Positions 3,266 to 24,393 of a stretch of 32,000 nt of DNA are shown here, piece by piece (the stretch's first letter is position 1; each line of letters begins with the position of its first letter). The translations under genes and the position numbers were made by a program. Origin of the DNA: Comamonas thiooxydans. Its GTDB lineage: Bacteria; Pseudomonadota; Gammaproteobacteria; Burkholderiales; Burkholderiaceae_C. The notes under the pieces are model-generated. The model worked only from the letters and a program-made list of their open reading frames with translations, did not search any database and was not told the DNA's origin. The DNA lies in contig NZ_BBVD01000005.1 in assembly GCF_000964545.1 (NCBI RefSeq), positions 2,838-34,837 of the forward strand. The letters are read 5' to 3'.

Positions 3266-3319
3266 TCGTGGCAACAGTGGTAACACTAGATGGCCCAGCA
3301 ACTTTCCTAAACATGACGA

Positions 3320-3986: not shown

Positions 3987-4010
3987 GCCACCCACGAGGT
4001 GGCTTTTTTT
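3987..4010 (+). terminator. rho-independent terminator
   Basis: Stem gccacc(3987-3992)/ggtggc(3998-4003), loop cacga, followed by a T7 run (4004-4010). Confidence 0.6.
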
Positions 4011-4025
4011 GTCCTGAATTTAGGG

Positions 4026-4112
4026 CCATCCGGCGTGACCGCTTAAGCAGGTACGGCAACTCAGGAATTCGCCTGGGCTGGCGACAATTGGGAGTGCGGT
4101 GTGGCTTCAGCG
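4026..4112. repeat. copy B of the ~88-bp intergenic repeat
   Basis: See copy A. The two copies are 848 bp apart in the same orientation and bracket the 3320..3748 ORF. Confidence 0.6.
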
Positions 4113-4302
4113 CCTTTAGCGAAAGTGCTCACGCCAGATAAGGCAGAGCCTGTTTATGAGCCCACGCACATCTTGATTCCATCACTCTCTTTGGGCAAAA
4201 TTTGCGTCACGTACCTGTTTTGCCGGGCCTGGGGTCACAGACTCCTTTCACTTCCTCAACTTGCCCAGGCATGACCAAATAGGTCACCGGCTTTTTATTC
4301 GC

Positions 4303-4335
4303 GCCCGCAGCAACTGCTTGCGGGCTTTTTCTTTT
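4303..4335 (+). terminator. rho-independent terminator abutting the IS3-family element
   Basis: Stem gcccgca(4303-4309)/tgcgggc(4319-4325), followed by tttttctttt. Confidence 0.6.
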
Positions 4336-4370
4336 GTCACAGGAGAAGCATCCTCGCTTTCCTGCACTAC

Positions 4371-5194
4371 CTAAAAGTAGAGGTTGGGGAAACGTTTGAC
4401 ACGATACGCGACCGGCGGAATCCGGCCCAGCGATTCATGTGGACGATGGTGGTTGTAGCAATGCAGCCAGTCCTCGGTCATCGAGCGCACTTCCTGCAGA
4501 GATTCAAAGACATAGCAGTCGAGCACCTCCGTGCGATAGGTTCTGTTGAAACGTTCTACGTAAGCGTTCTGCGTCGGCTTGCCTGGCTGAATGTGGTTCA
4601 ACGCTATGCCTTTATCCTGCGCCCATTGCTTCAAGGCCTGGGCGATGAACTCGAGCCCGTTGTCCAGGCGAATGCACTGCGGCACCCCACGGACCTCAGT
4701 GAGCTCCTCCAAGGCTCGTACCACCCGAGCTGCAGGCAAGCTGGCATCAATTTCGATACGCAGGCACTCCCGGTTGAAGTCGTCAATGACGTTGAGGGTT
4801 CTGAACCGTCTTCCTGACCACAGGGCATCGGACATGAAGTCACAACTCCAGCCCTGGTTCGGTGTTGAGGCTGCCTCCAAGGGATGCTTGATGCGCTGCG
4901 GCAAACGTTTCTTGCCTCGCCTGGGCAGGTTCAGTTTGAGCTGGCAATACACACGCCAAAGCACAGTCTTGCCCAGAGCTGTTCTTGATAGCGGGCGCTG
5001 GCGTAAAGCAGCCCAAACCCGTGGCGAGGATTCAATGCCACGTATCTTTGGATGAAGTCGATTACCCCGGAGTCGTCACAGACCACACGTGCATATCGAA
5101 GCGTTGAGCGAGCCAGGCCCGCCGCTTGGCAAGCTCTGCGCTGACTTAGGCGGTGCTCGCTCATAAGCGCATGCACGATGGATTGCCGACGCAC
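4371..5194 (-). pseudogene. IS3-family transposase OrfB (DDE/rve integrase core) with an extra frameshift
   Basis: The catalytic part is intact (WSCDFMSD..., [27 protein letters not shown]). The N-terminal part (4931..5194, ...[20 protein letters not shown]) is in a different frame from ...[19 protein letters not shown] (4371..4964). The frames switch within about 4965-4990, separately from the normal orfA/orfB slippage. Confidence 0.75.
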
Positions 5195-5199
5195 CGGGG

Positions 5200-5466
5200 T
5201 CAGAGCTTTCGCTCGACAACATCCTTCAGAGCATGGTGCACGAGCGCCAAATCGGTATACATGCGTTTGAGCTTGGCGTTCTCTTCCTGCAACTGCCGCA
5301 TCTGGGCCAGATGCGGCACAGACATCCCTGAATACTGGCTCTTCCTCTTGTAGTACGTGGCATCGCTGATGCCATGTTTGCGACAGGTGTCACCGACTTT
5401 GGCGCCTAGCTCAACCTCCTTGAGGATGCCGACGATTTGCGCTTCACTGAATCTGGACTTCTTCAT
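5200..5466 (-). CDS. IS3-family transposase OrfA (HTH)
   Basis: MKKSRFSEAQIVGILKEVELGAKVGDTCRKHGISDATYYKRKSQYSGMSV...LQEENAKLKRMY is the canonical IS3 OrfA N-terminal HTH plus leucine-zipper pattern. Confidence 0.9.
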   Translation of the reverse strand: MKKSRFSEAQIVGILKEVELGAKVGDTCRKHGISDATYYKRKSQYSGMSVPHLAQMRQLQEENAKLKRMYTDLALVHHALKDVVERKL

Positions 5467-5553
5467 GTTGAGACCTCCGTGAGGGGGATTCTCGACTTTT
5501 GAGTGGCGCGAAGATTCGAGGACACATTTGAGGAGGCGTCAGTAACAGCTGTC

Positions 5554-5754
5554 CTGTTAAAGGCCTTTGCGAAACTGGGCGGCCCCGATCCGGCCAGCGT
5601 GCAGGTGACGGCCCACCGCTGGCGCTATGCCGACACGGCCAACCCGCTGAACATGGGCTCCTGGTGAGACGCGGCTGCCAGTTTGGGGATGTGCGGTGAC
5701 TGGCTGCACAACGGCACCGTGGAAGGCGCCTGGATCAGCGGTATAAGCTTGGCC
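5554..5754 (+). pseudogene. 3' fragment of a renalase-like NAD/FAD-dependent oxidoreductase (COG3380-type), 5' end removed at the IS3 boundary, with an in-frame TGA
   Basis: Own translation: LLKAFAKLGGPDPASVQVTAHRWRYADTANPLNMGSW*DAAASLGMCGDWLHNGTVEGAWISGISLA. This is the C-terminal HRWRYA...CGDW...VEGAW.SG pattern of that family. It begins 13 nt after the IS end, and a TGA at 5665-5667 interrupts the same frame. Confidence 0.5.
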
Positions 5755-5868
5755 TGCCATGTCCATAGGCACTGCTCGCCCATGCCGGATAAACCTACAG
5801 GGAGCACACCATGCGCACATCCTTTACTTCTGTCGATCTTCGGCGATTCGTGTGGATTTACCTTTCAG

Positions 5869-6837
5869 TCAATCCGCCGTTATTTTTCGATCACGGATGA
5901 TGCGGCTCCATTTCTCATTTTCTGTCGAAATGAATTTGGCCAATTCTTCTCGTGATGTTGGAGCTGCGGTTTGACCGTGTTTAAGCAGGTTTGCTCGCAC
6001 GTCAGGTGCGTTCAACACCTTCACGAGCTCGACATTCCATCTGTCCAGTAGCGGCTTGGGTGTTTTACCTGGCGCAACGAACGCATACCAGTTAGTGGCG
6101 TTAAAGCCTGGATAGGTCTCTGCGACGGTGGGCACATTGGGCAGGTAGGCTGGCCGTGTCAGTCCGGTGGTTGCCAACGGGATGAGCTTGCCCGACTCGA
6201 TATGCGGCAGCGCTGTGGGTGGTGCTGCATAGAAGGAGCTGACGCGTCCGCCCAGGACATCCTGTAACGCGGGGGCTCCGCCCTTATAGGGAATGTGAAC
6301 CGTGTCGATCTTTGCAATGTCGTTAAGCAGTTCGCCGGCCAAGTGGGCCGCTGATCCAGGGCCCGTAGAGGCAACGTCCAGTTTGCCCGGTTCACGCTTG
6401 GCTGTAGCCACAAACTCGCCTAGGGTTTTGATGCCTTTGCTTGCAGGCACCACCAGAACGTTGGGAAAGGTCACGCCCATAGTGATTGGTGCGAGATCCT
6501 TGAGCGGGTCGTAGCTCACCTTCATGAAGTGAGGCGAGATGCTCAAAGGGCCGATCGAGCCGAACAGCAAGACAGAGCCATCGGTAGGTCCATGGGCAAC
6601 CTGGGCATGCGCCAGATTGCCGCCGGCACCAGGCTTGTTATCCACGACCACGCTCTGGCCAATGTTTTCACCGAGTTTCTTGGCAATAATGCGTGCGGCG
6701 ATATCGGCCGAACCGCCTGCGGCAAAGCCAACAACCATGGTGACCGGTCTTTTTGGGGGGAAATCCTGGGCATAGGCACCGGCGAGCGGCAGGCAGGCGG
6801 CCAATGCGGCAGCCAGTATGAGAGGGCGTCGTTGCAT
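5869..6837 (-). CDS. Bug-family (TctC-like) tripartite tricarboxylate transporter substrate-binding protein
   Basis: Signal peptide MQRRPLILAAALAACLPLAGAYA, then QDFPPKRPVTMVVGFAAGGSADIAARIIAKKL..VVVDNKPGAGGN, the typical Bug N-terminus. ATG 6837 is preceded by AGGAG (atcaggagacaacATG). The ORF-track start 6864 is probably too long. Confidence 0.9.
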   Translation of the reverse strand: MQRRPLILAAALAACLPLAGAYAQDFPPKRPVTMVVGFAAGGSADIAARIIAKKLGENIGQSVVVDNKPGAGGNLAHAQVAHGPTDGSVLLFGSIGPLSISPHFMKVSYDPLKDLAPITMGVTFPNVLVVPASKGIKTLGEFVATAKREPGKLDVASTGPGSAAHLAGELLNDIAKIDTVHIPYKGGAPALQDVLGGRVSSFYAAPPTALPHIESGKLIPLATTGLTRPAYLPNVPTVAETYPGFNATNWYAFVAPGKTPKPLLDRWNVELVKVLNAPDVRANLLKHGQTAAPTSREELAKFISTENEKWSRIIRDRKITAD

Positions 6838-6934
6838 GTTGTCTCCTGATCGAGTCGTTATCAACTCTGTGCAAGCGGCGATGGTAAATATCCGGGACTA
6901 TTTCGTGAATTGCAATATATGACTAGACTGTTGC

Positions 6935-7834
6935 ATGCAGCGCATTAAATTCGATATTGCCGAACTACAGGCGTTTGTTGCCACGGCAGAGAATTCAAGC
7001 TTTCGTGTAGCTGCGGAACGTCTTTGTTTGTCTGCCCCGGCGTTGAGTCGCAGGGTGGAGCGCCTGGAGGAAGCACTTGGAGCCAAGCTGCTTGAGCGGA
7101 CCACCAGGCATGTTCAGTTGACCGCGATTGGTCAGGAATTTCTGACTGAGGCGCGCGCAGCGCTGGAGAGCCTCGAGACAGCAGCGCAGCGCATCAGCGA
7201 TCAGTCGCTGACTCGCCGAGGATTGGTGACGGTGGCTTGCATCCCTTCAGTGGCAAACCATCTTTTGCCAAATGCATTGCGCACCTTTGCCGATGAGTAC
7301 CCGGATGTGCACGTTCATGTCATTGACGAGAATGCGAGCCATGTCCTGGATGCCGTGGTTAGGGGGCGAGCCGATTTCGGGCTCAGTTTCACGGGAAGCC
7401 AGGAACCAGGAATTCAGTTCGAGACTTTGGCACGCGAGCGATATGTGTTGGCAATGCTGCGAAGTCATGCTTGGGCATGCCGCTCAGAGGTAGCGTGGTC
7501 AGAGCTTGCCGGAGTGCGCCTCGTATCCGTATCGCACCAGAGCAGCAATCGACTGCTTTTGGACCAAGTCATGGCAGGCCTGCCTGAGCAGCCAATAGCT
7601 TGGTACGAATGCAATCACGTAACTGGGGCTCTGGCTCTTGTCGAAGCAGGTTTGGGAATGGCAGCCATCCCGCAGCTTGCTCTGCCTGAGTGCAATCCTA
7701 AGGTCTGCGGTGTGCCACTCATTGAGCCTCAGTTGTGGCGGACTTTAGGCCTGATACAGAAGCGAGAGCGTGTGCTTAGTCCTGTCGCTGAATATCTGAA
7801 GAACCGCTTGCTCACCCTCCATGTGAACCACTGA
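6935..7834 (+). CDS. LysR-family transcriptional regulator
   Basis: N-terminal wHTH LQAFVATAENSSFRVAAERLCLSAPALSRRVERLEEALGAKLLERTTR plus a LysR substrate-binding domain. It is divergent from the Bug gene. An 8-bp palindrome ATTGCAAT (6909-6916) sits in the shared promoter region. Confidence 0.9.
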   Translation: MQRIKFDIAELQAFVATAENSSFRVAAERLCLSAPALSRRVERLEEALGAKLLERTTRHVQLTAIGQEFLTEARAALESLETAAQRISDQSLTRRGLVTVACIPSVANHLLPNALRTFADEYPDVHVHVIDENASHVLDAVVRGRADFGLSFTGSQEPGIQFETLARERYVLAMLRSHAWACRSEVAWSELAGVRLVSVSHQSSNRLLLDQVMAGLPEQPIAWYECNHVTGALALVEAGLGMAAIPQLALPECNPKVCGVPLIEPQLWRTLGLIQKRERVLSPVAEYLKNRLLTLHVNH

Positions 7835-8336
7835 GCACGCACTGGACTGTTGCACGCGACCCATTGCGTTCAGCGGTACAAACCTATGTTCCGATCAAGT
7901 GTTCTCGATTTTTCAGCGAATTGAGCGTGACACATCAACTCAGGTGCGCGACATCCATCACGTAAGAAATCAGGGTTTTTGAGAGTGTCAAAAACTCGGA
8001 GCTCTAAGGGCTTGTACTGCGATCTTCACCATCAAAATTCTCTTTCGCTTCTCTAAAGCGATCTGCGTTTCAAATCTAGCGCCGAGAAGCTCGGTAGGTG
8101 CCCCGACAACCGCCTCACAGCCCAATTGAAAAGGCGGTTTGGAGAACTCCACGCAGCCCAATCCACTTGCGGAATTTTGAGTGGAACTGCGAAGGTGAAA
8201 GCTATGGTCGACCTCATTGAGGAGAGATGACCGATTGGGTTTCGAACAGCGACGGACGCAACCCGTTGAATCCACAGTCACTAGCGGTCGGCCCGCATTC
8301 CTCCAGGGCTGTCTTCTGAAGCAGGAAGTCAACGCG

Positions 8337-8759
8337 TTAGGCGGACGGGTCTTCGAGCATTGTCCTATTCAATTCAAACCCTTCATCGAGCCAACCAGTA
8401 ATACCGCCAACCATTATTTTCACGGGCCGCCCCAGTCTTGCCAGACGCAAGGCACCGCGTGCCGCGCCGTTGCAATGGGGCCCTGCGCAGTAGGTGACGA
8501 ATAGGGTCTCTTCTGGCCAAGCCGCCAACTTGCTTTCGACGATCTTCCCATGAGGCAAATTGATTGCCCCTGGCACATGGCCCTGTGCGAACAGCGCTGG
8601 CGAGCGTACGTCGAGGAGCACGAAATCGGGGCCCTTTAGAAGCCCGTCATGCACATCCCAACAATCGGTCTCGAAACTGAATTCAGCAGCGAAATGAGCG
8701 ATGGCAATGGACGGCTTCGCAGCGGGAATTGCGGTTACATGGGTGCTGGAGAAGGTCAT
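8337..8759 (-). CDS. rhodanese-like domain protein (sulfurtransferase)
   Basis: FVLLDVRSPALFAQGHVPGAINLP and an active-site loop YCAGPHCNGAARGA, the rhodanese fold pattern. Confidence 0.8.
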   Translation of the reverse strand: MTFSSTHVTAIPAAKPSIAIAHFAAEFSFETDCWDVHDGLLKGPDFVLLDVRSPALFAQGHVPGAINLPHGKIVESKLAAWPEETLFVTYCAGPHCNGAARGALRLARLGRPVKIMVGGITGWLDEGFELNRTMLEDPSA

Positions 8760-12609: not shown

Positions 12610-13664
12610 ATGCAAACCATCGTCCGTGTTGGGGTAGATCTCGCAAAGAATGTGCTGCAGGTCCATGCAGTCGATGCTCAAGGGAGGATGGTCACTAACC
12701 GGGCCATCCAGCGCAGCAAGTTCTTGGCATGGTGTGCGCAATTACCTGCAGGGTGTCTGGTGGCCATGGAGGCTTGTGGTGGTGCGCACCACTGGTGTCG
12801 GGCTTGGATGCACGCATGATGGCAGCGGCACTGGTCGCACCCTATCGCATGCAGGGCAAGAGCGGTAAAAACGATGCCAATGATGCGGCTGCCATTTGTG
12901 AGGCAGCCAGTCGCCCTCAGATGCGCTTTGTCCCCGTTAAGACTCCAGAGCAGCAGGGCATACTATGTGTGCATCGGCTGCGCGAAGGGTTCAAAGAGGA
13001 ACGCACAGCATGCATTAACCGTATTCGAGGATTGCTCGCCGAGTTTGGCATTGTTCTGCCGCAAAGCCCCAAAGTCTTGCGCACCTATTTGCACGATATC
13101 TTGGAAGATGCGACCAATGACATCGCAGGCGCAGCCCGCATTGCGCTGCAGCGTGCACTCATGCATTGGCAAGAGCTCGATGAACATCTTCACTGGTGCG
13201 AGCAGCGTATTGCCGCTCACTGTAAAGAAGATGCACAGGTGCAGCGAGCTGCCGCCATCAAGGGCTTGGGGCCACTCACTGCATCAGCGATGGTCGCCAC
13301 TGTGGGCGACTTCAGGCAGTTCAAGAACGGTGCACAGTTTGCCGCCTGGCTTGGGTTGACGCCCAGACAGAATTCCAGCGGAGGCAAATCCAATCTGGGT
13401 GCCATCACCAAGCGAGGCGATAGTTACCTGCGCACTTTGCTGGTCCAAGGGGCCAAGGCCGCAGTGCTGACCGGCAAACACAACCTCGACCCGATCTCCC
13501 AATGGGTGATGGCCTTGAGGCAGCGCAGTGGCTGGCAAAAGGCCGCCGTGGCGTTAGCCAACAAAAATGCACGCATCCTGTGGGCGCTCATGACACAGGA
13601 GCGTACCTACGAAGCAGCCCATATCAGCGAACGCCCCAGGCCACCCGTCTCTGCCGTTGCCTGA
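12610..13664 (+). pseudogene. IS110-family recombinase/transposase (DEDD RuvC-like N-domain + C-terminal domain), reading frame broken near 12800-12815
   Basis: MQTIVRVGVDLAKNVLQVHAVD...VAMEACGGAHHWCRAWMHA* is in frame 1. It continues in another frame as GLDARMMAAALVAPYRMQGKSGKNDANDAAAICEAASRPQMRFVPVKTPEQQ...FAAWLGLTPRQNSSGGKSNLGAITKRGDSYLRTLL. AGGAG lies 8 nt before ATG 12610. Element boundaries were not determined. Confidence 0.8.
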
Positions 13665-14060: not shown

Positions 14061-14112
14061 CCACCTGCCCTTTCGCTGCTGGTCTCTCAAGGTTGTGCAT
14101 GCCGAAACCTAG

Positions 14113-14472
14113 GTGATGTTTAGAGCACCTTACCCTGCACATTTGCCGCATCTGCAATACATCCTTGATGATCTGCGCTACAGCGATGCACAGCTCGCTA
14201 GGCTTCTAGACCTCAAGCCAGCTACCATCAAAAAATATCGGCGCGAGGGGCAAGCTCCTCGCGCCGTTCATTTGGCACTGTTTTGGGAATCACGATGGGG
14301 AATTTCTACCATCGACGCGATCGCCTTCAATCATGCAGCGGGCAACTACGCACTAGCCGAATCGCTCAAGCGCACAAATGCTAGGCTTGTCAAGCAAATC
14401 TTGACCATGGAAAAGGAGCTTGCGAGGCATAAAACCGCGCCCGCAAACGCTCCAGTTTTTCAGATTGGCTAA
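14113..14472 (+). CDS. small phage-type HTH regulatory protein (DUF3653-like pattern)
   Basis: AQLARLLDLKPATIKKYRREGQAPRAVHLALFWESRWG resembles the HTH plus 'AP..v.lal' pattern of small prophage regulators. The C-terminus is a coiled-coil-like helix. The family assignment is from memory only. Confidence 0.45.
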   Translation: MMFRAPYPAHLPHLQYILDDLRYSDAQLARLLDLKPATIKKYRREGQAPRAVHLALFWESRWGISTIDAIAFNHAAGNYALAESLKRTNARLVKQILTMEKELARHKTAPANAPVFQIG

Positions 14473-15188
14473 CAACCAATGCGAAATTGTCTATCACGAG
14501 CTTTACGTCGCTCTTCACGAATCCAATCCATGGTGTAACCACCACCGCCAATTCGCCCCAAGGAATCCAGCCAATTCACATGCTCATCTAGAGCTCGGCA
14601 TTCACCAGCATTCGCTCTACCTCCAGTGGGACGAGTTGCGACTGGAACCACTTGCTCAGCGGCAACTGCGTGCGCCCTATCCCGCTGCTGTCTTGCAATT
14701 GCTACTTGCTCCTCCCAAGAGACATTAGTCGGAACACGCGCAATGCGATCCATAAAACGCCCGTTGGCAGAGCATGGAACGCTTTCCCATGTGAGGTTGC
14801 CTTGAAAGTCTTTGCAGAGATAAATTTCCCGAGAGCTTGGCCCATTGCTTGGCTGCGCAATCTGCCTGCCACCTTCGCAAGGTGTAGTGCTGTAGCTATT
14901 TCCACACTGATAAATCTGGCCTGTAGCTTCGGTGCGAGGCTTTTCAGGCACCAAGACTCTTGGTGCAACGACAGTCTGCTCTGGCGGAGGTCGAGATGCA
15001 GGTAGTTGAGGAGCCGCCGGAGGAGGCCCAACTAAAAAGCGCAATATTTCAGACTGATATCTGTATACAAGTGCACCAGCCATAAGCACGGCAATCGTAA
15101 GAACGAGCTTTGCAAAAAAGCTCATTTCATTTTTCCCACTCGTGAATGGATTATCGCGCTGCCATCCACCAGGATCGTAATGTCCCAT
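14469..15188 (-). CDS. DUF4124-like membrane-anchored protein
   Basis: Strong RBS (gaGGAGGgggttATG). One TM helix (FFAKLVLTIAVLMAGALVY) and a Pro-rich linker. Two IY.C.....G......PC motifs are present (IYQCGNSYSTTPC, IYLCKDFQGNLTWESVPC). The C-terminus is CRALDEHVNWLDS...RKARDRQFRIGC. The stop overlaps the stop of the convergent 14113..14472 gene. Confidence 0.6.
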   Translation of the reverse strand: MGHYDPGGWQRDNPFTSGKNEMSFFAKLVLTIAVLMAGALVYRYQSEILRFLVGPPPAAPQLPASRPPPEQTVVAPRVLVPEKPRTEATGQIYQCGNSYSTTPCEGGRQIAQPSNGPSSREIYLCKDFQGNLTWESVPCSANGRFMDRIARVPTNVSWEEQVAIARQQRDRAHAVAAEQVVPVATRPTGGRANAGECRALDEHVNWLDSLGRIGGGGYTMDWIREERRKARDRQFRIGC

Positions 15189-15893
15189 AACCCCCTCCTC
15201 TTTCCCGAATCATAGGACAGAAGCGCTCCCGCACTACTCCCAAAGATTGAGCACTCTACGGTGCTCTAAGTGCTCGCCGCACGGCGTCAGCTGTCCGTGA
15301 CACGTCGCGCCCAGCACCATTCCCCGGAGTTTTCGCCGCTTCGGCCACGCTAAATCAGGAGCGGCCTACGGCCTTGTCCTTTCTCCGGGGGTATTCATAA
15401 AGCTTCGCTTTACAAAGCTTCCCCACTCCGAAACGCCATCCTGATACCGCTAAAGGCACGGCGAAGAACTCAGGGGAACGGTGCAAGCAAGGGACAGTTA
15501 AACGGGCAGCAGACAGTTGACGACCCGGCTCCGAATCTAGGGGCCCGGTACACCAGAAAGGCGGCACATCATGGCAATCGCAGCAAATTTCAGGAAGTAT
15601 GCAGAGGCAATGGCGCTGCAACTGGTGCTGCCTTTCGGCCGGCCGATCTGGAACACTTCGCGCCCCACAACGCGCCTCGGCCGCGAGATCCGCTCATACA
15701 TCACCAAGGCCATAGGCGCGCGGCCTGGTTGAATATCCGGCGCTCCCTGCAATCCCTCAGTGGTGGAAGGATGCTCAGACACGCGCGCGAGCCTTCGTTA
15801 AGTTTGCGAAGGAAGGTCAGCTCAAGATCGACTTGAGCCAGCGAAAACCGACCATCAATAAGCCAAACTAGAAAATCCGGCTATCACTGCTTT

Positions 15894-16640
15894 TTATGCA
15901 ATCTGTTCACCGACGATAATTTTTGCTTCATGATATGGAGCACACCTTTTAAGATAGTCCTTGCAGAATCCTGAAAACGTCTCGGAGGGTTTAGTCATAG
16001 ATTCCATAATCTCCAGTGCCTCTCTTATTTTTCTCTTTTTGTTCTGCTTCTTGATATCTGTCTCAGCATCTTCGTAATCCTTTATGGCTTCTTCAAGTGA
16101 TTCGCTAAAACTATGCAGGCTTACTAAAATATCTGCCCTGGGCCTCATCAATCTTACAGAATTCAGTCCACAGACGCTTATAGTCCGCTCGCCGATTTCC
16201 TTGTGAATATTATTTACTGCGATTTTTATGTCAGTGTAATGGAATATATCTTCCGGATCAGAATCATAGGGGTTAATAATAGGATAACTTACCGTGTCAT
16301 GTCCGCCTTTGCGGTCATTGCATTTTCTACATGCCGGAAGGAAGTTTTCCCAATTAAATGCTAGCGCAGGATAGATCGACTTAGGGGCAAAATGTTCCAC
16401 CTCGATATTTCCACTCTCCCCGGGCTTTGTCTCACAAAACGCACATTTCTCAAGCGAACTTTTAAATAAGACGCTTTTTATTTCTTGGTGCCGATAATGA
16501 ATAAGTAGTTTTTCTTTCTGCTCTGCAGGAATTTTTGAGTAACCCCCAAAAACAGTGACTGCCTCGATTAGACTAGTTGTCCACGAATTTTCATTATTTA
16601 TCAGCACGGCAGGCTTATTATCACGACTTAGCTTAATCAT
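15894..16640 (-). CDS. HNH endonuclease, PtuB-like (candidate Septu nuclease subunit)
   Basis: The zinc-ribbon HNH core is CAFCETKPGESGNIEVEHFAPKSIYPALAFNWENFLPACRKCNDRKGGHD (16317-16445). Start ATG 16640 overlaps the upstream ATPase stop by 8 nt. Composition is AT-rich, unlike the host. The gene call is firm; the PtuB assignment is by architecture and motif only. Confidence 0.75.
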   Translation of the reverse strand: MIKLSRDNKPAVLINNENSWTTSLIEAVTVFGGYSKIPAEQKEKLLIHYRHQEIKSVLFKSSLEKCAFCETKPGESGNIEVEHFAPKSIYPALAFNWENFLPACRKCNDRKGGHDTVSYPIINPYDSDPEDIFHYTDIKIAVNNIHKEIGERTISVCGLNSVRLMRPRADILVSLHSFSESLEEAIKDYEDAETDIKKQNKKRKIREALEIMESMTKPSETFSGFCKDYLKRCAPYHEAKIIVGEQIA

Positions 16641-17886
16641 TTGACAGCGCTACCATCGATGCATATCTTGTATTTAAGACGGTCAAAATGGAATCACTCG
16701 GGTGAGCCACTTCAGATAGTCTGAAAATAGCATTCTTTAAGCCTTCAATAGACCCCTCTTGGATTTTATCAAAAGATTCAGAAATAAGTATTTCGTAGTC
16801 TTTATTCTCTAAACTAACTACACCCATAACTTCCGATAGAATATGATCAGTGCTCCAACCAGAAAATCTCTTAGCCGTTGGCTTAAGAGTTAATTCACTT
16901 GTGCCTGCCTCCCTATTCATTATAATTACTTCATTTTCCTTCGCAGATGAAAGCAAATGCGGAGAATGAGTTGTTACTATAAATTGAATATTCGGAAATA
17001 AGCTCTCCAATCCATCTCGCAGTGTGAATTGCCACTCAGGATGCAAGTGAAGATCAAGCTCATCCACTAAAACTGAACCCGTAGCATTGGCAGCCAACCT
17101 TTCACCTGCACTCCGAGTCGCTTCAACCCATTGAAATATATTAGCGACTATTGATAATACTGCCTGAAAGCCGGCAGAGAGCTCCTCCATGTAGCACTCT
17201 TCACCATAAATTGAAAATATTGGCTCAAAGTCTTTCTCGGTTCTAATATAAGAGAAATTACTATTAAATGGCGCCAGAGCGGGGAGCTTTTCAATTAATC
17301 TTTTCCAATTTTCTCTTTCTTCTGTCGCCCATTCCTTATCAATCATAAAATATCGATTAATGAACCACTGCTTAATATCTATAGGATTTACTCCATATAA
17401 TGACTGTGTTCCATTTGATGAATATTTTTGGCGCTGCTGCGCAAGCCCCAGCTCTCGAGTCATCCCATCTATCTGATGATATTTAATACTTCTTTCTGCT
17501 CCAATAAATAGTGGGCAGAACCCATCCAGCTTTTTATCGGTTTCATGTAGCAAGACAGATTCCCGGCCCATCTCCCTGTCCGGGTGATTCCATGCCCTTA
17601 TTGAATGTCTTCTATAGCCCCTGGGATCGATAGAGTTCCCACCAATTCCAACTCTCTTTTTTTCTCCTAAAACCATCATATCGATCCAGAACTTAGAGCC
17701 CTCATGAAATCTGGAATATTCAAAAGCGGCATGGTTTAGACAGTGAGATATTCCAGCCAGAATTGAAGTTTTACCGCAGCCATTTGGCCCGGCGATAAAA
17801 TTGAAATTTTTATTAAACTCAACATCCAGCGTTTTGAACTGTCTAAAATTTTCCAGATGTAGTTTCTCGATGTAGCTTGATGTCAA
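16633..17886 (-). CDS. ABC/SMC-like AAA15/21-type ATPase, PtuA-like (candidate Septu ATPase subunit)
   Basis: N-terminus IEKLHLENFRQFKTLDVEF. Walker A GPNGCGKTS (17764-17790), signature-like EELSAGFQ, Walker B SVLVDELDLHLHPEWQ and H-loop FIVTTHSPHLL are all present. The start is apparently TTG 17886, with no strong RBS. There is no TOPRIM or nuclease domain. Confidence 0.75.
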   Translation of the reverse strand: MTSSYIEKLHLENFRQFKTLDVEFNKNFNFIAGPNGCGKTSILAGISHCLNHAAFEYSRFHEGSKFWIDMMVLGEKKRVGIGGNSIDPRGYRRHSIRAWNHPDREMGRESVLLHETDKKLDGFCPLFIGAERSIKYHQIDGMTRELGLAQQRQKYSSNGTQSLYGVNPIDIKQWFINRYFMIDKEWATEERENWKRLIEKLPALAPFNSNFSYIRTEKDFEPIFSIYGEECYMEELSAGFQAVLSIVANIFQWVEATRSAGERLAANATGSVLVDELDLHLHPEWQFTLRDGLESLFPNIQFIVTTHSPHLLSSAKENEVIIMNREAGTSELTLKPTAKRFSGWSTDHILSEVMGVVSLENKDYEILISESFDKIQEGSIEGLKNAIFRLSEVAHPSDSILTVLNTRYASMVALSND

Positions 17887-17961
17887 TTTATACCGCCATT
17901 TTTACGTGTACAACAAGATTAAGACAACACAAAAACAATATTCGTCAATCTCTTAGGAATT

Positions 17962-17990
17962 AATATAGCCTCATAAGAAAAAGTGAGCAA
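17962..17990 (-). promoter_or_regulatory. candidate sigma-70 promoter for the ATPase-HNH operon
   Basis: On the minus strand: TTGCTC (17985-17990), a 17-nt spacer, then TATATT (17962-17967), about 75 nt upstream of the ATPase start and inside the AT-rich leader. Pattern match only. Confidence 0.3.
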
Positions 17991-18128
17991 TCGCAAACAA
18001 TATTTGCAGATGATCCCAAAATTTCGAGATTAAGGAAAGTTCATCACTCGCGTAAGACCACCTAACTCGCTCAGATATGGTCATGCGCAGCCACTGGTAC
18101 AACCCGCCAGCTCCGTCGAGATACAAAC

Positions 18129-19517
18129 TCAGTTATCCATCAGGACAGAGCGCACCTGAGAATTGCGCCTGGCCAGGGCTTCCAGATAGCCACCTGCCTG
18201 TTGCTGCTGTTCTTGGCGTACCTGGGCCACTTCCTGGGGCATTGGCGCGTTGCTGTAGCGGGTGTTGCGGCCATCGCTGCGGGAGCCAGTCGCTGCATCG
18301 ACCACAAGGGGCCTGTCCTGGCCGCCGGTGTTCAGGTATGGCGCGTCGCAGGTGACAGGGCGGACTACACCGTCGAACTTCACTGTGACCATGCAGTTCG
18401 CCATGCGCTTGACGCTGTAGCCAGCAGCCTCCAGGTCTTCGCTTGTGACCTCAAACATGCGGCGGGTACCGTCGCTGACGATGAAGAGCGTGATGCTTTT
18501 GTCCTTCTTCGACAGATGCCCGGCAACGTGTAGCTGCTTGCCGAACAGCGGTTCTTTGGTCTGAGGTACGGCCTCAGCTGGGGCCGCGGTGGCCTGCTGA
18601 GGCTCCGAAGGCTTAGGCTCGGTCGGCGTGGGTGCTGGTGACGCGGCGACAGGGGTTGCAGCAGCACCAGGTGCGGGGCCAAGGACGCGCGGCTTGACGG
18701 GTGGCGAAGGCACGACCTTGCGGCCCCAGACATCGTGCTCACCATCAGGCCAAAAGGCCCAGATCACCAGAAGCACCGACAGGACTAGCCACAACTTCTT
18801 GAAACGGTTGAATTTGACGATCATGGGGTTGACGTCAGTCACCCCAGATTCAGCAGAGCCGCTGCTTTGCGTGTTGCTGCGGTACAGGCCGAAATACTGG
18901 CTCTTGTATTCGCGTTCGTCGGTCTGGATGACTGCACCGCGATAGCCCGCATGTACCTTGCGGATGTAGCTCTCTTTCCTGCCCAGGATGTCGGCCTTGC
19001 GGCACTTGATGAGCGTGGCGATGAGCTGCGCGATGGGCTGGTTGATGTCGCGAAAGCTTTGCGTCATCAGCAGCACATCGGCGTTGTAGTGTCGATGCAG
19101 CTTGAACCACTGCACGACGCTTTCAGGTGTGCCTAGCTTGGGCAGTGCGACGTGACATTCGTCGATAACGTACAGTGGGCCTTGGTTTTTGGTGCCGCGC
19201 CATTCGCTGTAGTAGTCCCAGACGGTACCGAATGTAAAAACGTTCTCGGACTGGGGAATGGGCTCTTTGTCCGTCCAAAGCTGAAACGCTTCCTGCTCTG
19301 CAATGTTGGCCGCGTTCCAGTCGCCGAGCTGGGGCGTTGGCCTGGTGCGAACTTCGACCAGGTCGCGATAACTCGGGTCGATGGCCGCGAGAGCATCGAT
19401 GTTCAGCGGCAGGTTTGTGATGACCTTGCGGCCGGCCTGGAGCGCGGGCAGCACGTGATAGGCCACTGCCTCATAGCTTTTGCCAGAGCCAGGGATTCCC
19501 TCTAGTCCATTGATCAT
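18129..19517 (-). CDS. zonular occludens toxin (Zot)-like / filamentous phage assembly ATPase pI
   Basis: MINGLEGIPGSGKSYEAVAYHVLPAL... is the Zot-family N-terminus with a P-loop. It has Walker B LYVIDECH, one TM (LWLVLSVLLVIWAFW), a Pro/Ala-rich linker and a C-terminal periplasmic domain. The start overlaps the upstream gene stop (ATGA at 19514-19517). Confidence 0.85.
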   Translation of the reverse strand: MINGLEGIPGSGKSYEAVAYHVLPALQAGRKVITNLPLNIDALAAIDPSYRDLVEVRTRPTPQLGDWNAANIAEQEAFQLWTDKEPIPQSENVFTFGTVWDYYSEWRGTKNQGPLYVIDECHVALPKLGTPESVVQWFKLHRHYNADVLLMTQSFRDINQPIAQLIATLIKCRKADILGRKESYIRKVHAGYRGAVIQTDEREYKSQYFGLYRSNTQSSGSAESGVTDVNPMIVKFNRFKKLWLVLSVLLVIWAFWPDGEHDVWGRKVVPSPPVKPRVLGPAPGAAATPVAASPAPTPTEPKPSEPQQATAAPAEAVPQTKEPLFGKQLHVAGHLSKKDKSITLFIVSDGTRRMFEVTSEDLEAAGYSVKRMANCMVTVKFDGVVRPVTCDAPYLNTGGQDRPLVVDAATGSRSDGRNTRYSNAPMPQEVAQVRQEQQQQAGGYLEALARRNSQVRSVLMDN

Positions 19518-19903
19518 GAGCCAAGCCTTGTGAACGGGATGAGCTGGAGCGCCAACCGTATGCCGATAGCCGTGACGACGATGCCCACGGCTGTGCCGAT
19601 GCCCGAGAGCTGCATCACAGTGACGATCTCGGGCGGCAGGTTGATGTTGTCGGCAATGCCCTTGAGCGGTGACACATCGACCGCATCAAGGGCGACTTTG
19701 ATGATCTCGAAGAGCTTTTCAATCAGCCAAGACACGGCGTCCGTGAACATGTCCCAGGCGGCCTTGATGATGGCCTTGATAAGGTCTGCAGCCCACTTGT
19801 ACCAGGCATCAACGACATCCTTGGCCCATTTGAAATACTCAGTCAGAGACTCCGTGAGCCAGGAGAAAAATGCATCAATACGACGCTTGAGCCAGTCGAA
19901 CAT
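19514..19903 (-). CDS. pVI-like minor coat / DUF2523-type membrane protein of filamentous phage
   Basis: It occupies the position between the pIII-like and pI genes. ATG 19903 is preceded by GGAGG (cGGAGGctgagcATG). The protein is MFDWLKRRIDAFFSWL... with a hydrophobic C-terminus GIGTAVGIVVTAIGIRLALQLIP. The ORF-track start 19984 would overlap the pIII-like gene. Confidence 0.6.
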   Translation of the reverse strand: MFDWLKRRIDAFFSWLTESLTEYFKWAKDVVDAWYKWAADLIKAIIKAAWDMFTDAVSWLIEKLFEIIKVALDAVDVSPLKGIADNINLPPEIVTVMQLSGIGTAVGIVVTAIGIRLALQLIPFTRLGS

Positions 19904-19905
19904 GC

Positions 19906-20811
19906 TCAGCCTCCGAAGATCAGACGACGCGCGGTAATGAGTGCGGTCAGGATGGTGATGGCCTTCAACACTTCCCAAAGCCACAACGGGGGCGAGATGT
20001 CATGCGTACCGAAATCACCCAACGGCCTAAAGTTGAAATCAACGATCCAGACTGGTGCAGATCCGCCGTCCGCGATCTTTGGCATCAGGGCCATAGCGAG
20101 CGAGCCAAGGCCGGAGTTCTTGATGCCTGCACTGCTTTGCTTCCAGACCTCTACAGGCCCCTGCGGATACTTAGGCTCATAGAGCTTGCCGAAATCACCA
20201 GCCCCCGTGCCTGGCAGGCCAGCTTTGCCGGGGCCGCCACCCGTGTCGTTGCCGCAGTCGGTAATGGTGCAGCCGTCGCCATCACCATCGCCATTGCCGC
20301 TTCCAGTGCCTGAACCTGTGCCGCTCTGGCTATCTTTGCCTGGCACCGGATTGGCGTTGACCGCAGCGCAAAGAAAGCCATCCTTGTTTTTGGCCTTGGC
20401 GCAGTACTGGTCTTGACTGATCTTGTCTGTCGAAGTCGTGGTGCCTGTGACGTTGCCGTTAGCGTCCTTAGTGGTCTTGGTCGTGGTGGACTCACAGACG
20501 CCGTTAGAGCATGTCGTCGTAGTCTTTCCTTCGGTTTTGGTGCCATCGCTGTTTGTGGTGGTACCCGTCCAATCCACGCCAGTTGCGCTGGCTGCAGGGA
20601 TGCAGACATCTTTGCCGTTCACCGTGCCGGTCTGCCCCGCACAACGCTTGTCGATAGGCTCGGCCTTTTCTGCGGGTGGTGGCGCATCAGGCGCAGAAGG
20701 TTCACTAGGTGTGCCGTAGCTGCACTTGCCGCCTGTGAGCGTGCCCATGCCCTTGTACAGGGTCTTGCCGGTGCTATCGGTTACACCTGTGCTTGGGCCG
20801 GCATTAGCCAT
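19906..20811 (-). CDS. pIII-like adsorption / minor coat protein (TspB C-terminal-domain-like); possibly frameshifted at its 5' end
   Basis: Thr/Gly/Cys-rich N-terminal part, a glycine linker GSGTGSGNGDGDGDG and a C-terminal membrane anchor WLWEVLKAITILTALITARRLIFGG. Its position is immediately upstream of the pVI-like and pI genes. As called, the protein lacks a signal peptide. Confidence 0.6.
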   Translation of the reverse strand: MANAGPSTGVTDSTGKTLYKGMGTLTGGKCSYGTPSEPSAPDAPPPAEKAEPIDKRCAGQTGTVNGKDVCIPAASATGVDWTGTTTNSDGTKTEGKTTTTCSNGVCESTTTKTTKDANGNVTGTTTSTDKISQDQYCAKAKNKDGFLCAAVNANPVPGKDSQSGTGSGTGSGNGDGDGDGCTITDCGNDTGGGPGKAGLPGTGAGDFGKLYEPKYPQGPVEVWKQSSAGIKNSGLGSLAMALMPKIADGGSAPVWIVDFNFRPLGDFGTHDISPPLWLWEVLKAITILTALITARRLIFGG

Positions 20812-20933
20812 GCAACCTTGACTACAGCCAGGAAACTTAGGTTGGTCCCAGAAGCAACGGCCAAGACACCCGCAGAACCTGCAACGACCTTGGCACCGTA
20901 GCGACGGGCGATAGAACGAGTTTTATTGAACAT
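20781..20933 (-). CDS. 50-codon ORF encoding a signal-peptide-like sequence, overlapping the pIII-like start in another frame
   Basis: Own translation: MFNKTRSIARRYGAKVVAGSAGVLAVASGTNLSFLAVVKVAWLMPAQAQV*. A 1-nt shift near 20812-20816 would fuse ...FLAVVKVA to MANAGPST..., giving pIII a leader with an A-x-A site. It does not look like a major coat protein because it has no basic C-terminus. Confidence 0.3.
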   Translation of the reverse strand: MFNKTRSIARRYGAKVVAGSAGVLAVASGTNLSFLAVVKVAWLMPAQAQV

Positions 20934-21331
20934 GATTGGACGGGCGTTGGTCCTGTCGGAGATTCGCTTTGTGGTGCTGCGCTCACAAGTAGCTAGACCC
21001 GGCTCCGGTCAAGAGCTGCCGACTACCGCAGACTTCTGAACGACGGCTGGAGGTTGAACTGGGTCATCTTCGTGAATCGGTCTGGACGATTGCAAACACG
21101 GACGTCAGCTCTTGGTCGCAAAGCGACTTCAACCGGCGGGGTATCCCTTAACACCAAACTCTCCGCCATGGAGGTCGAGAAACGCGGGCCTACGAGGAGT
21201 TGGGCCATTTGGTTCGGTAGAACATCACTCCATCATGTTCTTTGCACACTCAAGCGGATGAGCACGGATCTTGCTTAACTGACTTGTAGCCGTTTTTGCA
21301 ATGAAGCAGATTCGGCTGTATCAGGACAACG

Positions 21332-21406: not shown

Positions 21407-22627
21407 ATGACGGGCTTCCGAAACTTTTTACAAGCTGGGCATGCACCAACCTTGGGCGCATCATTCTTCTATTTCGCCTGCTCATGCGGCATTTGGGTCA
21501 TCAATGGTGCAATGGCCCCTTTTCTCAGCGAGAGCTTTAATCTGACACCGGCGCAGAAGGGCCTGATGCTATCCATCCCGATCTTCGCGGGGTCGCTGAT
21601 GCGCTTTCCGCTGGGATTACTGGCTCAGTACATCGGTAGAAAGAATGCCACCCTGGTTGAGATGGTGGGCATCGCCATCGCAATGTTGTACGGCTACTTC
21701 GCCGTTGACTCCTTTGGTGATCTGCTGGCCATGGGCGTTTTGCTAGGCATTGCTGGTGCCAGCTTCGGCGTAGCTCTTTCACTCGGTTCAGGCTCATTTC
21801 CACCGCGCTACAAGGGACTAGCAATGGGACTAGTTGGTGCCGGCAACATCGGAACGGCCTTTGCCGCACTGCTGGCACCGCAGTTGGCACAGGCCTTTGG
21901 CTGGCAGGCCGTATACGGCTTTGCGGCTCTAGGTATTCTGGTGCCTATGGTCGTAATGATTGTGTTTGCCCGAGAACCCGCAGACCGTGATGCACATGCC
22001 ACTCTGCGTGACCATGTTGCCTGCCTTTTCGAGAAGGACGGCTGGGCTTTCAGCCTAATTTATGCCGTCACCTTTGGCGGCTTCATTGGCTTAGCCACTT
22101 TTCTGCCAAGCTACTTTTATGACCAATTCGGTGTGAGCAAAGTTGAAGCTGGGCAGTTGACCATGCTGGCTGCGTTTATGGGTGCAACTACGCGCATTTT
22201 TGGCGGCTGGCTGTCGGATCACTGGGGCGGAGTGAACACGCTCACAGCAGTGCTGGTCGTCGTCTTCATTAGCTTGCTGCTTTGCGGACTCAGCGGCCAC
22301 TCCTTAACTCTCACAGTGCTGTTCTTCTTGGTATGTTTTGCCGCCTTGGGAGCTGGCAATGGTGCCTTGTTCCAATTGGTTCCTCTGCGGTGGCCAACAA
22401 CCACTGCTGTGGCCGGCTCCATGATCGGAGAGTTGGGCGCTTTGGGCGGCGGCTTGATCCCTGCAAGCATGGGTTTGTCGCAACAGCACACCGGCAGTTA
22501 CTTCTCAGGATTCGCTGTGTTTGCCTGCTTTTCACTAGTCATGTTGGTGATGCTGCGCTACATGCAACTGCGCTGGACACGCACCTGGGCGGAGAAAGGC
22601 GGTCGCGCACGCACCGTTCCGGCTTGA
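21407..22627 (+). CDS. MFS nitrate/nitrite transporter (NarK/NasA family)
   Basis: 406 aa and about 12 predicted hydrophobic spans. It has an MFS loop motif (GSLMRFPLGLLAQYIGRKN) and Gly-rich NarK-type motifs (GAGNIGTAFAALLAP, AALGAGNGALFQLVP). It is located beside nirBD. Confidence 0.85.
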   Translation: MTGFRNFLQAGHAPTLGASFFYFACSCGIWVINGAMAPFLSESFNLTPAQKGLMLSIPIFAGSLMRFPLGLLAQYIGRKNATLVEMVGIAIAMLYGYFAVDSFGDLLAMGVLLGIAGASFGVALSLGSGSFPPRYKGLAMGLVGAGNIGTAFAALLAPQLAQAFGWQAVYGFAALGILVPMVVMIVFAREPADRDAHATLRDHVACLFEKDGWAFSLIYAVTFGGFIGLATFLPSYFYDQFGVSKVEAGQLTMLAAFMGATTRIFGGWLSDHWGGVNTLTAVLVVVFISLLLCGLSGHSLTLTVLFFLVCFAALGAGNGALFQLVPLRWPTTTAVAGSMIGELGALGGGLIPASMGLSQQHTGSYFSGFAVFACFSLVMLVMLRYMQLRWTRTWAEKGGRARTVPA

Positions 22628-22635
22628 TTCAAAGC

Positions 22636-24393
22636 TCAGCGTGGCAGGAACAGTAACCAGTAAAGCAGCGCCACATTGAGCACAACGCTGAAGGCGAGCG
22701 CTGTCTTCCAACCGAATGCTGGATCGCGCTCAAGGAGTGGACTGGACGCTTGCGGCAATAGTGGCCGCGCAGCTCCGCGCTCTAACGCCAGCAACATTTC
22801 TTCGGCCGTCTCGAAGCGCTGTGCAGGATCGCGAGCGATCGCCTTAAGAACGATGGCATCCAGCCAGATTGGTACTTGTGGGCTGTGACGACTGGGAGGT
22901 ATTGGGTCACGCCAGTAGCGCCCTCTCTGGTAAGCGATAACCTCACCATAGGGCAGACGTCCACTTGTCAATAGCTGGTACAGCGTCACGCCCAAAGCGA
23001 ACAGGTCGCTGCCCGCACTTGCTGGCACTGGCGGATCGTCCCACTGCTCGGGGTTCATGTAGCTAGCAGTACCCGCATGTAAGGCACGCAGTTCGGGAGG
23101 CTCTCGGCCAGTCAGCGCAACGCCAAGGTCGAGCAGACGCAACACCCCATCAACACCGCAGTGAAGGTTCGCGGGCTTGACGTCGCGGTGGATAACACCC
23201 TGTCGGTGCAGGTAACCCAGCACACGCGCGGCCTGCTGACCTATGGCAAGCACCTGGTCTACACCAGGCTGATGTCGTCGCTCCAGCCACTGAGAAAGCG
23301 TCTCGCCCTCCACCCATTCGTACAAAAGATAGAAAGCTGATGGCAGATCCACCGGCGCAGCATGCAGCCGAACCAGATGTCGGGCTGCCGCTCCGGTCTG
23401 CAGATGGCCGGCCACCCATGCTTCATGGGCCAGAGCAGCCCATTCCTGGCGGTCATGGGCACGCTGTGTGTGCAGCGTTTTGAGCGCATGGCGCTGGCCG
23501 CTGCGCTCATCCAGCACTCGGTACACGCGGTAAATGCCACTGTCGGCCACTAAAGCCTCCACACGCAGCCCATCCACCAGACTGCCGGGCCTGAGCAGAG
23601 GCAACGGCGGCAGGGACTGTGCGCGACGCATAGTGTCGTCCAGGGTTGCTTCCTTCACGCCCAGCACGCGAACGACCACGGCTGTGAGATTGTCGCGGCT
23701 GCCGTTGCGCCACGCGGCATCAGCCAAGCGTTCGGCCAGGGACTGTGCACCGCCCTCGCCCGCCCACTGGGCAAACTCGCGCGGCTTGACGTCATTGTGT
23801 ATGCCGTCTGACAGCAGTACAAAAATGTCGCCGGGAACCACTTCTCCTTGCCGATAGTCAATGCTGACCCTATCCTCCAGGCCGATGGCGCGCGCCAGGC
23901 GGTGCGCGAAGTCCACGCCGCCCATCACATGGTCCTCCGTCAGCTGCTCGATCTGCCCTTGTCGCAACAGGTAGGCACGGGTATCGCCTACATGGGCCAG
24001 CGTGAAACTCTGCCCACGTAGAACCAGAGCTGTCAGCGTGGTCAGACCATAGGCCGGCTGACGTCGCCGATTGATGCCATAGAGCCAAGCGTTCTGTGCA
24101 CCCACGATGCGGTCCAGCGCCACGGTGGGCTCCCAGGTGACTGGCGTGCAAAAGAAGTCGCGTGCCAAACAGGTTACCGTGGTCTGTGCAGCTTCACGGC
24201 CCCAGCCACCCGCACTGACACCATCGGCAACGGCGGCGAGCATGCTGGCGTGGCCCGAACTTTCGTCCTGCAGTTGTACTGCCGCGAAGTCCTCGTTGTC
24301 CTGCGCACGACCGGAGCGTGAGACCCATCCGATATCCAGTTCAAAAGGCATGAGCGAATCCGTAATGGCATTCCTTGCAATCGCGCCCCACAA
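22636..24393 (-). CDS. bifunctional PP2C-type Ser/Thr phosphatase + Hanks-type Ser/Thr protein kinase with a C-terminal TM anchor
   Basis: The PP2C part has QDNEDFAAV, AVADGVSAGGWG, GDTRAYLL, LLSDGIHN and RDNLTAVVVRV. The kinase part has RHALKTL, HRDVKPANL, DLGVA and GTASYMNPEQ. The C-terminal hydrophobic helix is ALAFSVVLNVALLYWLLFL. The start is either TTG 24393 or ATG 24351 (MPFELDIGW...). Confidence 0.85.
   Translation of the reverse strand: MWGAIARNAITDSLMPFELDIGWVSRSGRAQDNEDFAAVQLQDESSGHASMLAAVADGVSAGGWGREAAQTTVTCLARDFFCTPVTWEPTVALDRIVGAQNAWLYGINRRRQPAYGLTTLTALVLRGQSFTLAHVGDTRAYLLRQGQIEQLTEDHVMGGVDFAHRLARAIGLEDRVSIDYRQGEVVPGDIFVLLSDGIHNDVKPREFAQWAGEGGAQSLAERLADAAWRNGSRDNLTAVVVRVLGVKEATLDDTMRRAQSLPPLPLLRPGSLVDGLRVEALVADSGIYRVYRVLDERSGQRHALKTLHTQRAHDRQEWAALAHEAWVAGHLQTGAAARHLVRLHAAPVDLPSAFYLLYEWVEGETLSQWLERRHQPGVDQVLAIGQQAARVLGYLHRQGVIHRDVKPANLHCGVDGVLRLLDLGVALTGREPPELRALHAGTASYMNPEQWDDPPVPASAGSDLFALGVTLYQLLTSGRLPYGEVIAYQRGRYWRDPIPPSRHSPQVPIWLDAIVLKAIARDPAQRFETAEEMLLALERGAARPLLPQASSPLLERDPAFGWKTALAFSVVLNVALLYWLLFLPR

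Follow-up and report, generated by a model that had tools for sequence, protein, structure and literature searches.

Evidence that a decayed Comamonas thiooxydans inovirus prophage carries an intact Septu type I cassette 3′ of zot

Two overlapping minus-strand genes, encoding an ABC-type ATPase and an HNH nuclease, lie near the middle of a 32,000-nucleotide stretch of the Comamonas thiooxydans genome (contig NZ_BBVD01000005.1, positions 2,838 to 34,837; hereafter the window, whose own numbering is used throughout). The pair belongs to a kind already known, Septu, and would be reported as such by any of the standard defence finders. The locus is very probably an intact two-gene Septu type I (ptuA-ptuB) cassette, acquired horizontally 3′ of zot in an inovirus (filamentous phage) prophage that has since decayed. 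An earlier note, made from the sequence alone, had proposed the pair as a Septu-like candidate. What is new here is modest: the exact delimitation of the cassette, its place in the remnant of a Comamonas inovirus at a site for defence cargo 3′ of zot, and a widespread, phage-borne Septu subfamily.

Results

The ATPase and the HNH protein are PtuA and PtuB

The clearest evidence for the identity of the pair is that PADLOC models match both proteins from end to end. The ATPase aligns over residues 1–417 with positions 1–416 of the 416-position PtuA model PDLC00279 (E=6.2e-197), and the HNH protein over residues 1–247 with positions 1–248 of the 250-position PtuB model PDLC00336 (E=1.4e-114). AlphaFold2 models built from homolog alignments (mean predicted local distance difference test score, pLDDT, 86.2 for PtuA and 93.7 for PtuB) were compared with the PDB by Foldseek. 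The best 50 matches of the PtuA model are all PtuA chains, from both retrons and stand-alone Septu, aligned over the full length with TM values of 0.6–0.7. The PtuB model returns four significant matches only, all of them PtuB (9u9y_H, 9vhl_F, 9n69_F and 8eea_G, the last from E. coli Septu), in full-length alignments spanning 243–272 columns. With end-to-end PADLOC models and fold matches confined to PtuA and PtuB, the Septu identification of the earlier note holds. Sequence searches of the PDB likewise find the E. coli Septu PtuA 8ee4 (E=2e-25), and also match the PtuA and PtuB of the retrons Ec78, Ec83 and Eco7.

Pfam shows only generic AAA_15, SMC_N and AAA_21 domains in PtuA and an HNH match below threshold in PtuB, which explains why large parts of both proteins could not be placed in the earlier note. 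The alternative raised there, a divergent or unclassified ATPase-HNH clade, is not borne out, since the PADLOC alignments are end to end and the supposedly unplaceable regions fall inside solved PtuA and PtuB folds. In the predicted structures, the unplaced middle of PtuA is the insertion that ABC ATPases of this family normally have between the Walker A and signature motifs, and the K/E-rich C terminus of PtuB is the normal PtuB helical C-terminal domain (CTD). The C terminus of the PtuA model comprises exactly three helices, at residues 362–376, 380–393 and 399–416.

All of the ATPase motifs quoted earlier (GPNGCGKTS, LSAGFQ, VLVDELDLHLHP and TTHSP) are present, as are those of the nuclease (CAFCE, VEHF, WENF and CRKCN). 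Their key residues do not vary in the subfamily. Across 49 PtuA homologs the invariant residues comprise G33, P34, N35, G36, G38, K39, T40 and S41 of Walker A, S237, G239 and F240 of the signature, D275 and E276 of Walker B, and T305, T306, H307, S308 and P309 of the H-loop. In PtuB, C66, C69, H83, N99, C104, C107, N108, H114 and D115 are invariant in 51 homologs.

Mislabelling of a different ABC-ATPase/nuclease pair (OLD, Gabija GajA or a PARIS AriA/AriB-like system) as Septu has almost no chance of being the right explanation. The N-terminal P loop of PtuA does show weak similarity to AriA, OLD and Rad50, but these matches span only ~45–50 residues around Walker A, and the E-values of the PtuA models are better by over 170 orders of magnitude. 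Moreover, the partner is an HNH protein with the PtuB fold, neither a TOPRIM nor a DUF4435 partner is present, and the ATPase has no TOPRIM match in Pfam, as the earlier note had observed.

We also considered whether the pair could be an effector module left behind by a type I-A retron (Ec78/Eco7-like) whose reverse transcriptase (RT) and non-coding RNA have been lost. The proteins resemble those of type I-A retrons (Ec78/Eco7 and Ec83) in having homologous folds and, as predicted, the same docking architecture of the PtuA C-terminal extension (CTE) on the PtuB CTD. Among NCBIfam models, those for retron PtuA and PtuB score highest, and retron chains are also among the top PDB and fold matches. 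However, both retron equivalogs score far under their cut-offs (158.5 against 500 for NF041760, PtuA, and 59.6 against 150 for NF041761, PtuB). At 417 amino acids (aa), PtuA is shorter than the 540–550 aa of retron PtuA (542–552 aa for the retron chains in the PDB), it has neither their N-terminal extension nor their helical flap, and the sequence match is limited to the C-terminal half. The signature position occupied here by F240, invariant in the subfamily, corresponds to Gln361 in retron PtuA and to Leu in stand-alone E. coli Septu, and is thus hydrophobic as in the latter. The locus has no RT, non-coding RNA or msDNA: the earlier note's statement that an RT is missing agrees with the lack of any RT-like open reading frame (ORF) among the genes in the 10 kb from 12 to 22 kb, and an Rfam E-value scan of the same interval found no retron RNA, giving a single chance-level snoRNA match. 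Neither a retron RT nor msr-msd was found at the homolog loci inspected, all of which are two-gene cassettes. A retron origin is therefore very improbable, and we retain the assignment to Septu.

ptuA and ptuB overlap at a conserved junction

The two genes are neighbours, co-oriented and overlapping by 8 nucleotides (nt), the one-operon arrangement of Septu. Both the coordinates and the junction letters given in the earlier note are correct: in aATGATTAAg, the TAA of ptuA occupies 16633–16635 and the ATG of ptuB 16638–16640. Its claim of coupled translation also gains from comparison, because the overlap junction AATGATTAA is identical in seven of seven homolog loci whose overall nucleotide identity is only 66–81%, a conservation consistent with such coupling. 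ptuA and ptuB are adjacent, with an identical ATGATTAA overlap, in all homolog loci checked, and the pair of Burkholderia phage KS9 has the identical 8-nt overlap. Judged from the sequence, coupled translation of the two genes is probable.

The 417-aa length of PtuA requires a TTG start. On DNA with 100% identity to the window, some gene callers bypass this codon and report a PtuA of 312 or 348 aa. We considered whether these shorter forms in other assemblies represent pseudogenes and rejected the idea, as the DNA is the same and only the start-codon calls differ. The TTG start is supported by its retention in four of the five closest homologs and by the PADLOC profile alignment, which begins at residue 1; in addition, the shorter forms would be without Walker A. 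Both ORFs are undamaged, with every invariant residue present, and NCBI lists a protein with 100% identity to PtuB under the name "HNH endonuclease [Comamonas thiooxydans]".

The cassette is an AT-rich insertion or replacement that starts at the zot stop codon

The pair sits within a segment whose G+C content is 0.40 (15843–18128), compared with 0.57 in the rest of the window and 0.59 in the adjoining zot block and inovirus genes; over 16001–18000 the values are 0.37–0.41, against 0.54–0.61 in the flanks. To delimit this segment, we used 13 related inovirus contigs from IMG/VR, whose Zot proteins are 43–96% identical to the one here (individual contigs are cited below as L011, L012 and so on). 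In blastn comparisons with these relatives, homology halts exactly at the zot stop (18128/18131) and restarts at 15842 in L014 and at 15788 in L013. The two break points are 105 bp apart in L014 and 233 bp apart in L013 but about 2.29 kb apart here, so that the Septu cassette has been inserted into an inovirus genome or has replaced part of it. It is absent from all 13 related contigs and is therefore not part of the inovirus core. Thus, the low G+C described in the earlier note is confirmed, while the extent given for the islet was slightly too small, the inovirus comparison placing its bounds at about 15843–18128.

That note had further taken the composition as a sign of recent foreign acquisition. 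A foreign AT-rich insertion is supported, but low G+C alone gives no date. Homolog cassettes are also AT-rich relative to their hosts (0.41 versus 0.63 in Jeongeupia; 0.34 versus 0.59 in Aeromonas), so low G+C is a mark of the mobile cassette and not by itself of the time of transfer.

The cassette ends carry neither a target-site duplication nor a terminal inverted repeat, all repeats there being short and at chance level, and there is no recombinase inside the cassette. The leader (17887–18128) and the cassette flanks are not common to the homolog loci, where nucleotide homology covers 17914–15890 only, and the leader has no sequence in common with the related inoviruses.

The surrounding inovirus is a remnant

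The gene that ends at the cassette boundary encodes the inovirus assembly ATPase pI/Zot (Pfam Zot, E=4e-26; phrog_197, E=1e-73), with 96%, 95% and 84% identity to the Zot proteins of contigs L011–L014. A blastn stretch of inovirus homology runs from 20854 to 18128, and homology to L011 and L012 ends at 20937; the remnant adjoins nitrate-assimilation genes (major facilitator superfamily (MFS) transporter, 21407–22627). The pIII-like adsorption gene has an internal deletion of about 711 bp that are present in L011, all that precedes this gene in the relatives is missing, and blastn against intact relatives finds no rep, ssb or major coat gene in the whole window, which identifies the prophage as a remnant.

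On the other side of the cassette, a homolog of a conserved convergent inovirus ORF, with no Pfam or PADLOC family, carries a frameshift near 15730 and has its 3′ end replaced at the cassette boundary. Further along, ORF239 has no Pfam, PHROG or PADLOC family. Its homologs (166–169 aa) come directly after zot in L015–L018, and it is a conserved inovirus accessory gene.

The site after zot varies among relatives

In contigs L015–L018 nothing is inserted after zot, and the ORF239 homolog follows directly. Contigs L013, L014 and L019 have only the convergent ORF at this position. In L012 (UViG_2556921102_000002, 7006–8427; Zot 95% identical), the same site holds, on the opposite strand, the PADLOC candidate PDC-S25, a 473-aa SIR2/STALD-like protein (E=4e-82). 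The presence of PDC-S25 at this site in L012 suggests a cargo hotspot after zot. Filamentous prophages of Vibrio have a variable locus enriched in defence genes (PMC11630473), and the post-zot variation observed here matches that description. Like the Vibrio loci and the KKP module of Pf phages (PMC11341870), the present one is a small accessory locus with interchangeable defence genes, but it differs in its Comamonadaceae host clade and in being carried by a decayed remnant. The word "Septu" occurs zero times in the text of the Vibrio survey (PMC11630473). A broader proposal, which we put forward tentatively and regard as doubtful at present, is that filamentous phages of the Comamonadaceae have a defence hotspot at the zot stop codon, and that this is possibly the first documented delivery of Septu by a filamentous phage, the host keeping the cassette as the phage decayed.

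In an independent contig from SRR35198428 (L026), identity with the window stops at window position 14067 and is followed by a second, different inovirus (3136–8728 of that contig), with genes for an ssDNA-binding protein, Rep, a pIII-like protein, DUF5455 and a 290-aa Zot. The counterpart in the window is an IS110-family transposase (12729–13664). Inovirus integration or rearrangement seems to recur at this locus.

The subfamily is widespread and carried by tailed phages

Among 8,000 scored candidates, 1,295 match this PtuA at E<=1e-10, and identity in the best 120 listed is 55–83%. Members occur in Pseudomonas, Aeromonas, Vibrio, Photobacterium, Shewanella, Marinomonas, Jeongeupia, Burkholderia and Campylobacterota. 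Ratios of nonsynonymous to synonymous substitution (dN/dS) against the closest diverged homologs are 0.10–0.14 for both genes, and purifying selection acts across the subfamily.

One carrier is Burkholderia phage KS9, a cultured temperate siphovirus, in which gp02/gp03 (NC_013055.1, 1658–3710; L037) form a Septu pair adjoining the integrase gene. The KS9 PtuA is 55% identical over its full length, and PADLOC assigns the pair to PDLC00279 (6e-189) and PDLC00336 (3e-111). Its record names the two genes merely as "AAA family ATPase" and "HNH endonuclease" and gives no defence function. KS9 resembles our locus in PADLOC subfamily, in the 8-nt overlap and in carrying the pair as temperate-phage cargo. 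It differs in being a tailed siphovirus with the pair beside the integrase gene, whereas here the carrier is a filamentous prophage and the pair follows zot.

Other homologs are found in varied settings. In Jeongeupia naejangsanensis (L008, 10001–11993), PtuAB lies within the tail module of a lambda-like siphovirus prophage, on the opposite strand; its placement between the tape-measure gene and gpK/gpJ-like genes is an unusual position for a moron. A Marinomonas island has the homolog next to a tyrosine integrase, PDC-S31 and a PHP-ABC ATPase. On a metagenomic contig (ERR2843954; L036, 2125–8920), PtuAB is followed by the TIR protein PDC-S35 (E=3e-78) in a compact defence island that also has a 1909-aa NTPase with a weak match to Avs1b. 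Further homologs are bare two-gene insertions between housekeeping genes.

None of 65 IMG/VR loci with PtuA relatives has a Zot-like gene, by a search with a hidden Markov model of Zot from one lineage and two peptide patterns, which distant cases could escape. The short IMG/VR contigs with PtuA are tailed-phage fragments. Within the limits of this pattern-seeded search, carriage of this Septu subfamily by inoviruses looks uncommon.

Further features of the window

A gene at 22636–24393 (minus strand), between the nitrate transporter gene and nirB, encodes a 585-aa fusion of a PP2C phosphatase and a Ser/Thr kinase, whose kinase domain is matched by the PADLOC PD-T4-6 models (E=1e-50). The match probably reflects generic kinase similarity in a regulator of the nas operon and not a defence gene. 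Elsewhere, the region 1500–5100 has a lower G+C (0.49–0.53) and two ORFs without a family (2572–3093 and 3320–3748), beside which lies a truncated IS3-type integrase-core gene (4371–4964); this region may be another small mobile insertion.

Table 1. Coordinates of the Septu cassette, its proteins and the inovirus remnant
Feature	Position	Strand	Description
AT-rich inserted cassette	15843..18128		about 2.29 kb, 40% G+C; bounds from the Septu-free relatives L013 and L014
Leader, zot stop to ptuA start	17887..18128	-	242 nt
ptuA	16633..17886	-	417 aa, TTG start, ABC/SMC-type ATPase
ptuB	15894..16640	-	248 aa, ATG start, HNH (beta-beta-alpha-Me) nuclease
8-nt overlap, ptuA stop / ptuB start	16633..16640	-	ATGATTAA; probable translational coupling
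PtuA Walker A	residues 33-41		GPNGCGKTS
PtuA signature	residues 236-241		LSAGFQ (LSAGF, 236-240)
PtuA Walker B	residues 272-283		VLVDELDLHLHP; catalytic Glu in 272-276
PtuA H-loop	residues 305-309		TTHSP
PtuA C-terminal three-helix extension	residues 362-416
PtuB motifs	residues 66-70, 81-84, 97-100, 104-108		CAFCE, VEHF, WENF, CRKCN
PtuB Cys4 zinc site	C66/C69/C104/C107		with H83, N99, N108, H114/D115
PtuB helical C-terminal domain	residues about 144-243
Decayed inovirus prophage, extent	18129-20937 + 14067-15842
pI/Zot inovirus assembly ATPase	18129..19517	-	462 aa; directly upstream of the cassette
pVI-like minor coat protein (DUF2523), inovirus	19514..19984	-
pIII-like adsorption gene, truncated	19906-20811 (truncated region to 20937)	-	phrog_4544 matches the C-terminal half only
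Convergent inovirus ORF remnant	15571..15858	+	149 aa in L013 (7025-7474)
Inovirus accessory/regulatory end	14067..15201		79% nt identity to L012 8606-9749
ORF239	14469-15188	-	secreted or membrane; YxCGNxYSxxPC motif
Xre-like gene	14113-14472	+	weak Xre-like helix-turn-helix match

Discussion

Among the known systems closest to the Comamonas pair are stand-alone E. coli Septu (PDB 8EE4, 8EE7, 8EEA and 8SUX) and Septu EcB88. These share with it a two-gene ptuA-ptuB operon without an RT, an ABC-ATPase fold with a C-terminal helical extension, an HNH nuclease with a helical CTD, a hydrophobic residue where the retron PtuA signature has Gln, and full-length fold matches. The differences are a structural-alignment identity of 16–19%, a PtuA that is ~50 residues shorter here (417 versus 465 aa), and assignment of the Comamonas pair to a different PADLOC subfamily model.

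By analogy with characterised Septu and retron complexes, we propose that PtuA would form ABC-ATPase dimers that oligomerise, with two PtuA C-terminal three-helix extensions clamping the helical CTD of one PtuB. In solved complexes, two PtuA CTEs and the PtuB CTD form a nine-helix bundle, to which PtuB contributes three helices (PMC12819146); the three C-terminal helices of our PtuA model and the predicted helical domain of PtuB fit this arrangement. In the uninfected cell, the nucleotide-bound PtuA scaffold would hold the nuclease inactive. A phage cue would then license PtuB to cut nucleic acid, by nicking supercoiled DNA, by cutting tRNA-Tyr in its variable loop, or both, and this cutting would arrest the infected cell and block the yield of phage. 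Expression could rely on zot transcripts that continue into the cassette, or on a weak leader promoter.

There are precedents for several of these steps. Septu EcB88 requires the Walker A and B residues of PtuA and the H-N-H residues of PtuB, and it acts in an abortive-infection-like manner, with the tRNA-Tyr variable loop cleaved only during infection (PMC13096335). As summarised in PMC12819146, stand-alone PtuAB of E. coli assembles into a hexamer resembling an inflammasome; it nicks DNA, ATP inhibits it, and a phage tail fibre is reported to sensitise it. PtuAB released from a retron nicks supercoiled DNA (PMC12819146). The weakest steps of the mechanism proposed for the Comamonas pair concern its substrate, its trigger and what ATP does.

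Several observations weigh against our reading of the locus as an intact, acquired Septu system. Because PtuA and PtuB are 16–21% identical, in structural alignments, to any characterised PtuA or PtuB, the target, trigger, stoichiometry and ATP dependence given above are extrapolations. In a consensus scan of the cassette, promoter and terminator counts equal the shuffle expectation and no minus-strand promoter is found in the leader; the best promoter-like element by eye, TTGCTC-N17-TATATT at 17962–17990, is weak, with 8 of 12 matches. The upstream promoters of the prophage, which bear on expression, have been deleted. Finally, at least 14 independent SRA/ENA assemblies have the locus at 99.9–100% nucleotide identity and in the same chromosomal setting, and with all public copies this similar there is no within-lineage sign of selection since acquisition.

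It could be argued from the missing rep, ssb and coat genes, the lost upstream promoters and the leader without a consensus promoter that ptuA and ptuB are silent, non-functional passengers in a dead prophage. We think this unlikely. Both ORFs are intact and keep all invariant residues, the cassette is without damage whereas the neighbouring inovirus genes carry a deletion and a frameshift, and the identical locus recurs in the independent assemblies mentioned above.

A further question is whether the pair serves general anti-phage immunity or is chiefly an addiction/toxin-like or superinfection-exclusion module of the filamentous prophage. The latter would suit its position at an accessory locus inside an inovirus genome and the survival of an intact cassette although the surrounding prophage has decayed. 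It would also suit the toxic, abortive-infection-like behaviour of PtuAB in other systems and the nicking by retron-released PtuAB of supercoiled DNA, the topology of the inovirus replicative form. However, most homologs are not in inoviruses but in tailed prophages and defence islands or between housekeeping genes, and there is no antitoxin-like third gene. Moreover, contig L026 has a second inovirus beside the locus, so that any exclusion is incomplete at best. A role chiefly for the prophage thus has a small chance of being correct, and we favour that of a Septu defence cassette.

On this reading, the locus provides a clean, boundary-defined defence system in the accessory locus of a filamentous phage beyond Vibrio and Pseudomonas, and shows that cargo can outlive its carrier. 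It also flags a widespread Septu subfamily (Pseudomonas, Aeromonas, Vibrio, Comamonas and Burkholderia phage KS9) whose identity to the Septu systems studied so far does not exceed 21%, and which could be used to probe whether tRNA-Tyr cleavage, DNA nicking and inhibition by ATP hold family-wide. A bolder extension of the doubtful proposal of delivery by a filamentous phage starts from the report that PtuAB nicks supercoiled DNA: besides acting on tailed phages, an inovirus-borne Septu could attack the replicative forms, likewise supercoiled, of competing inoviruses or plasmids.

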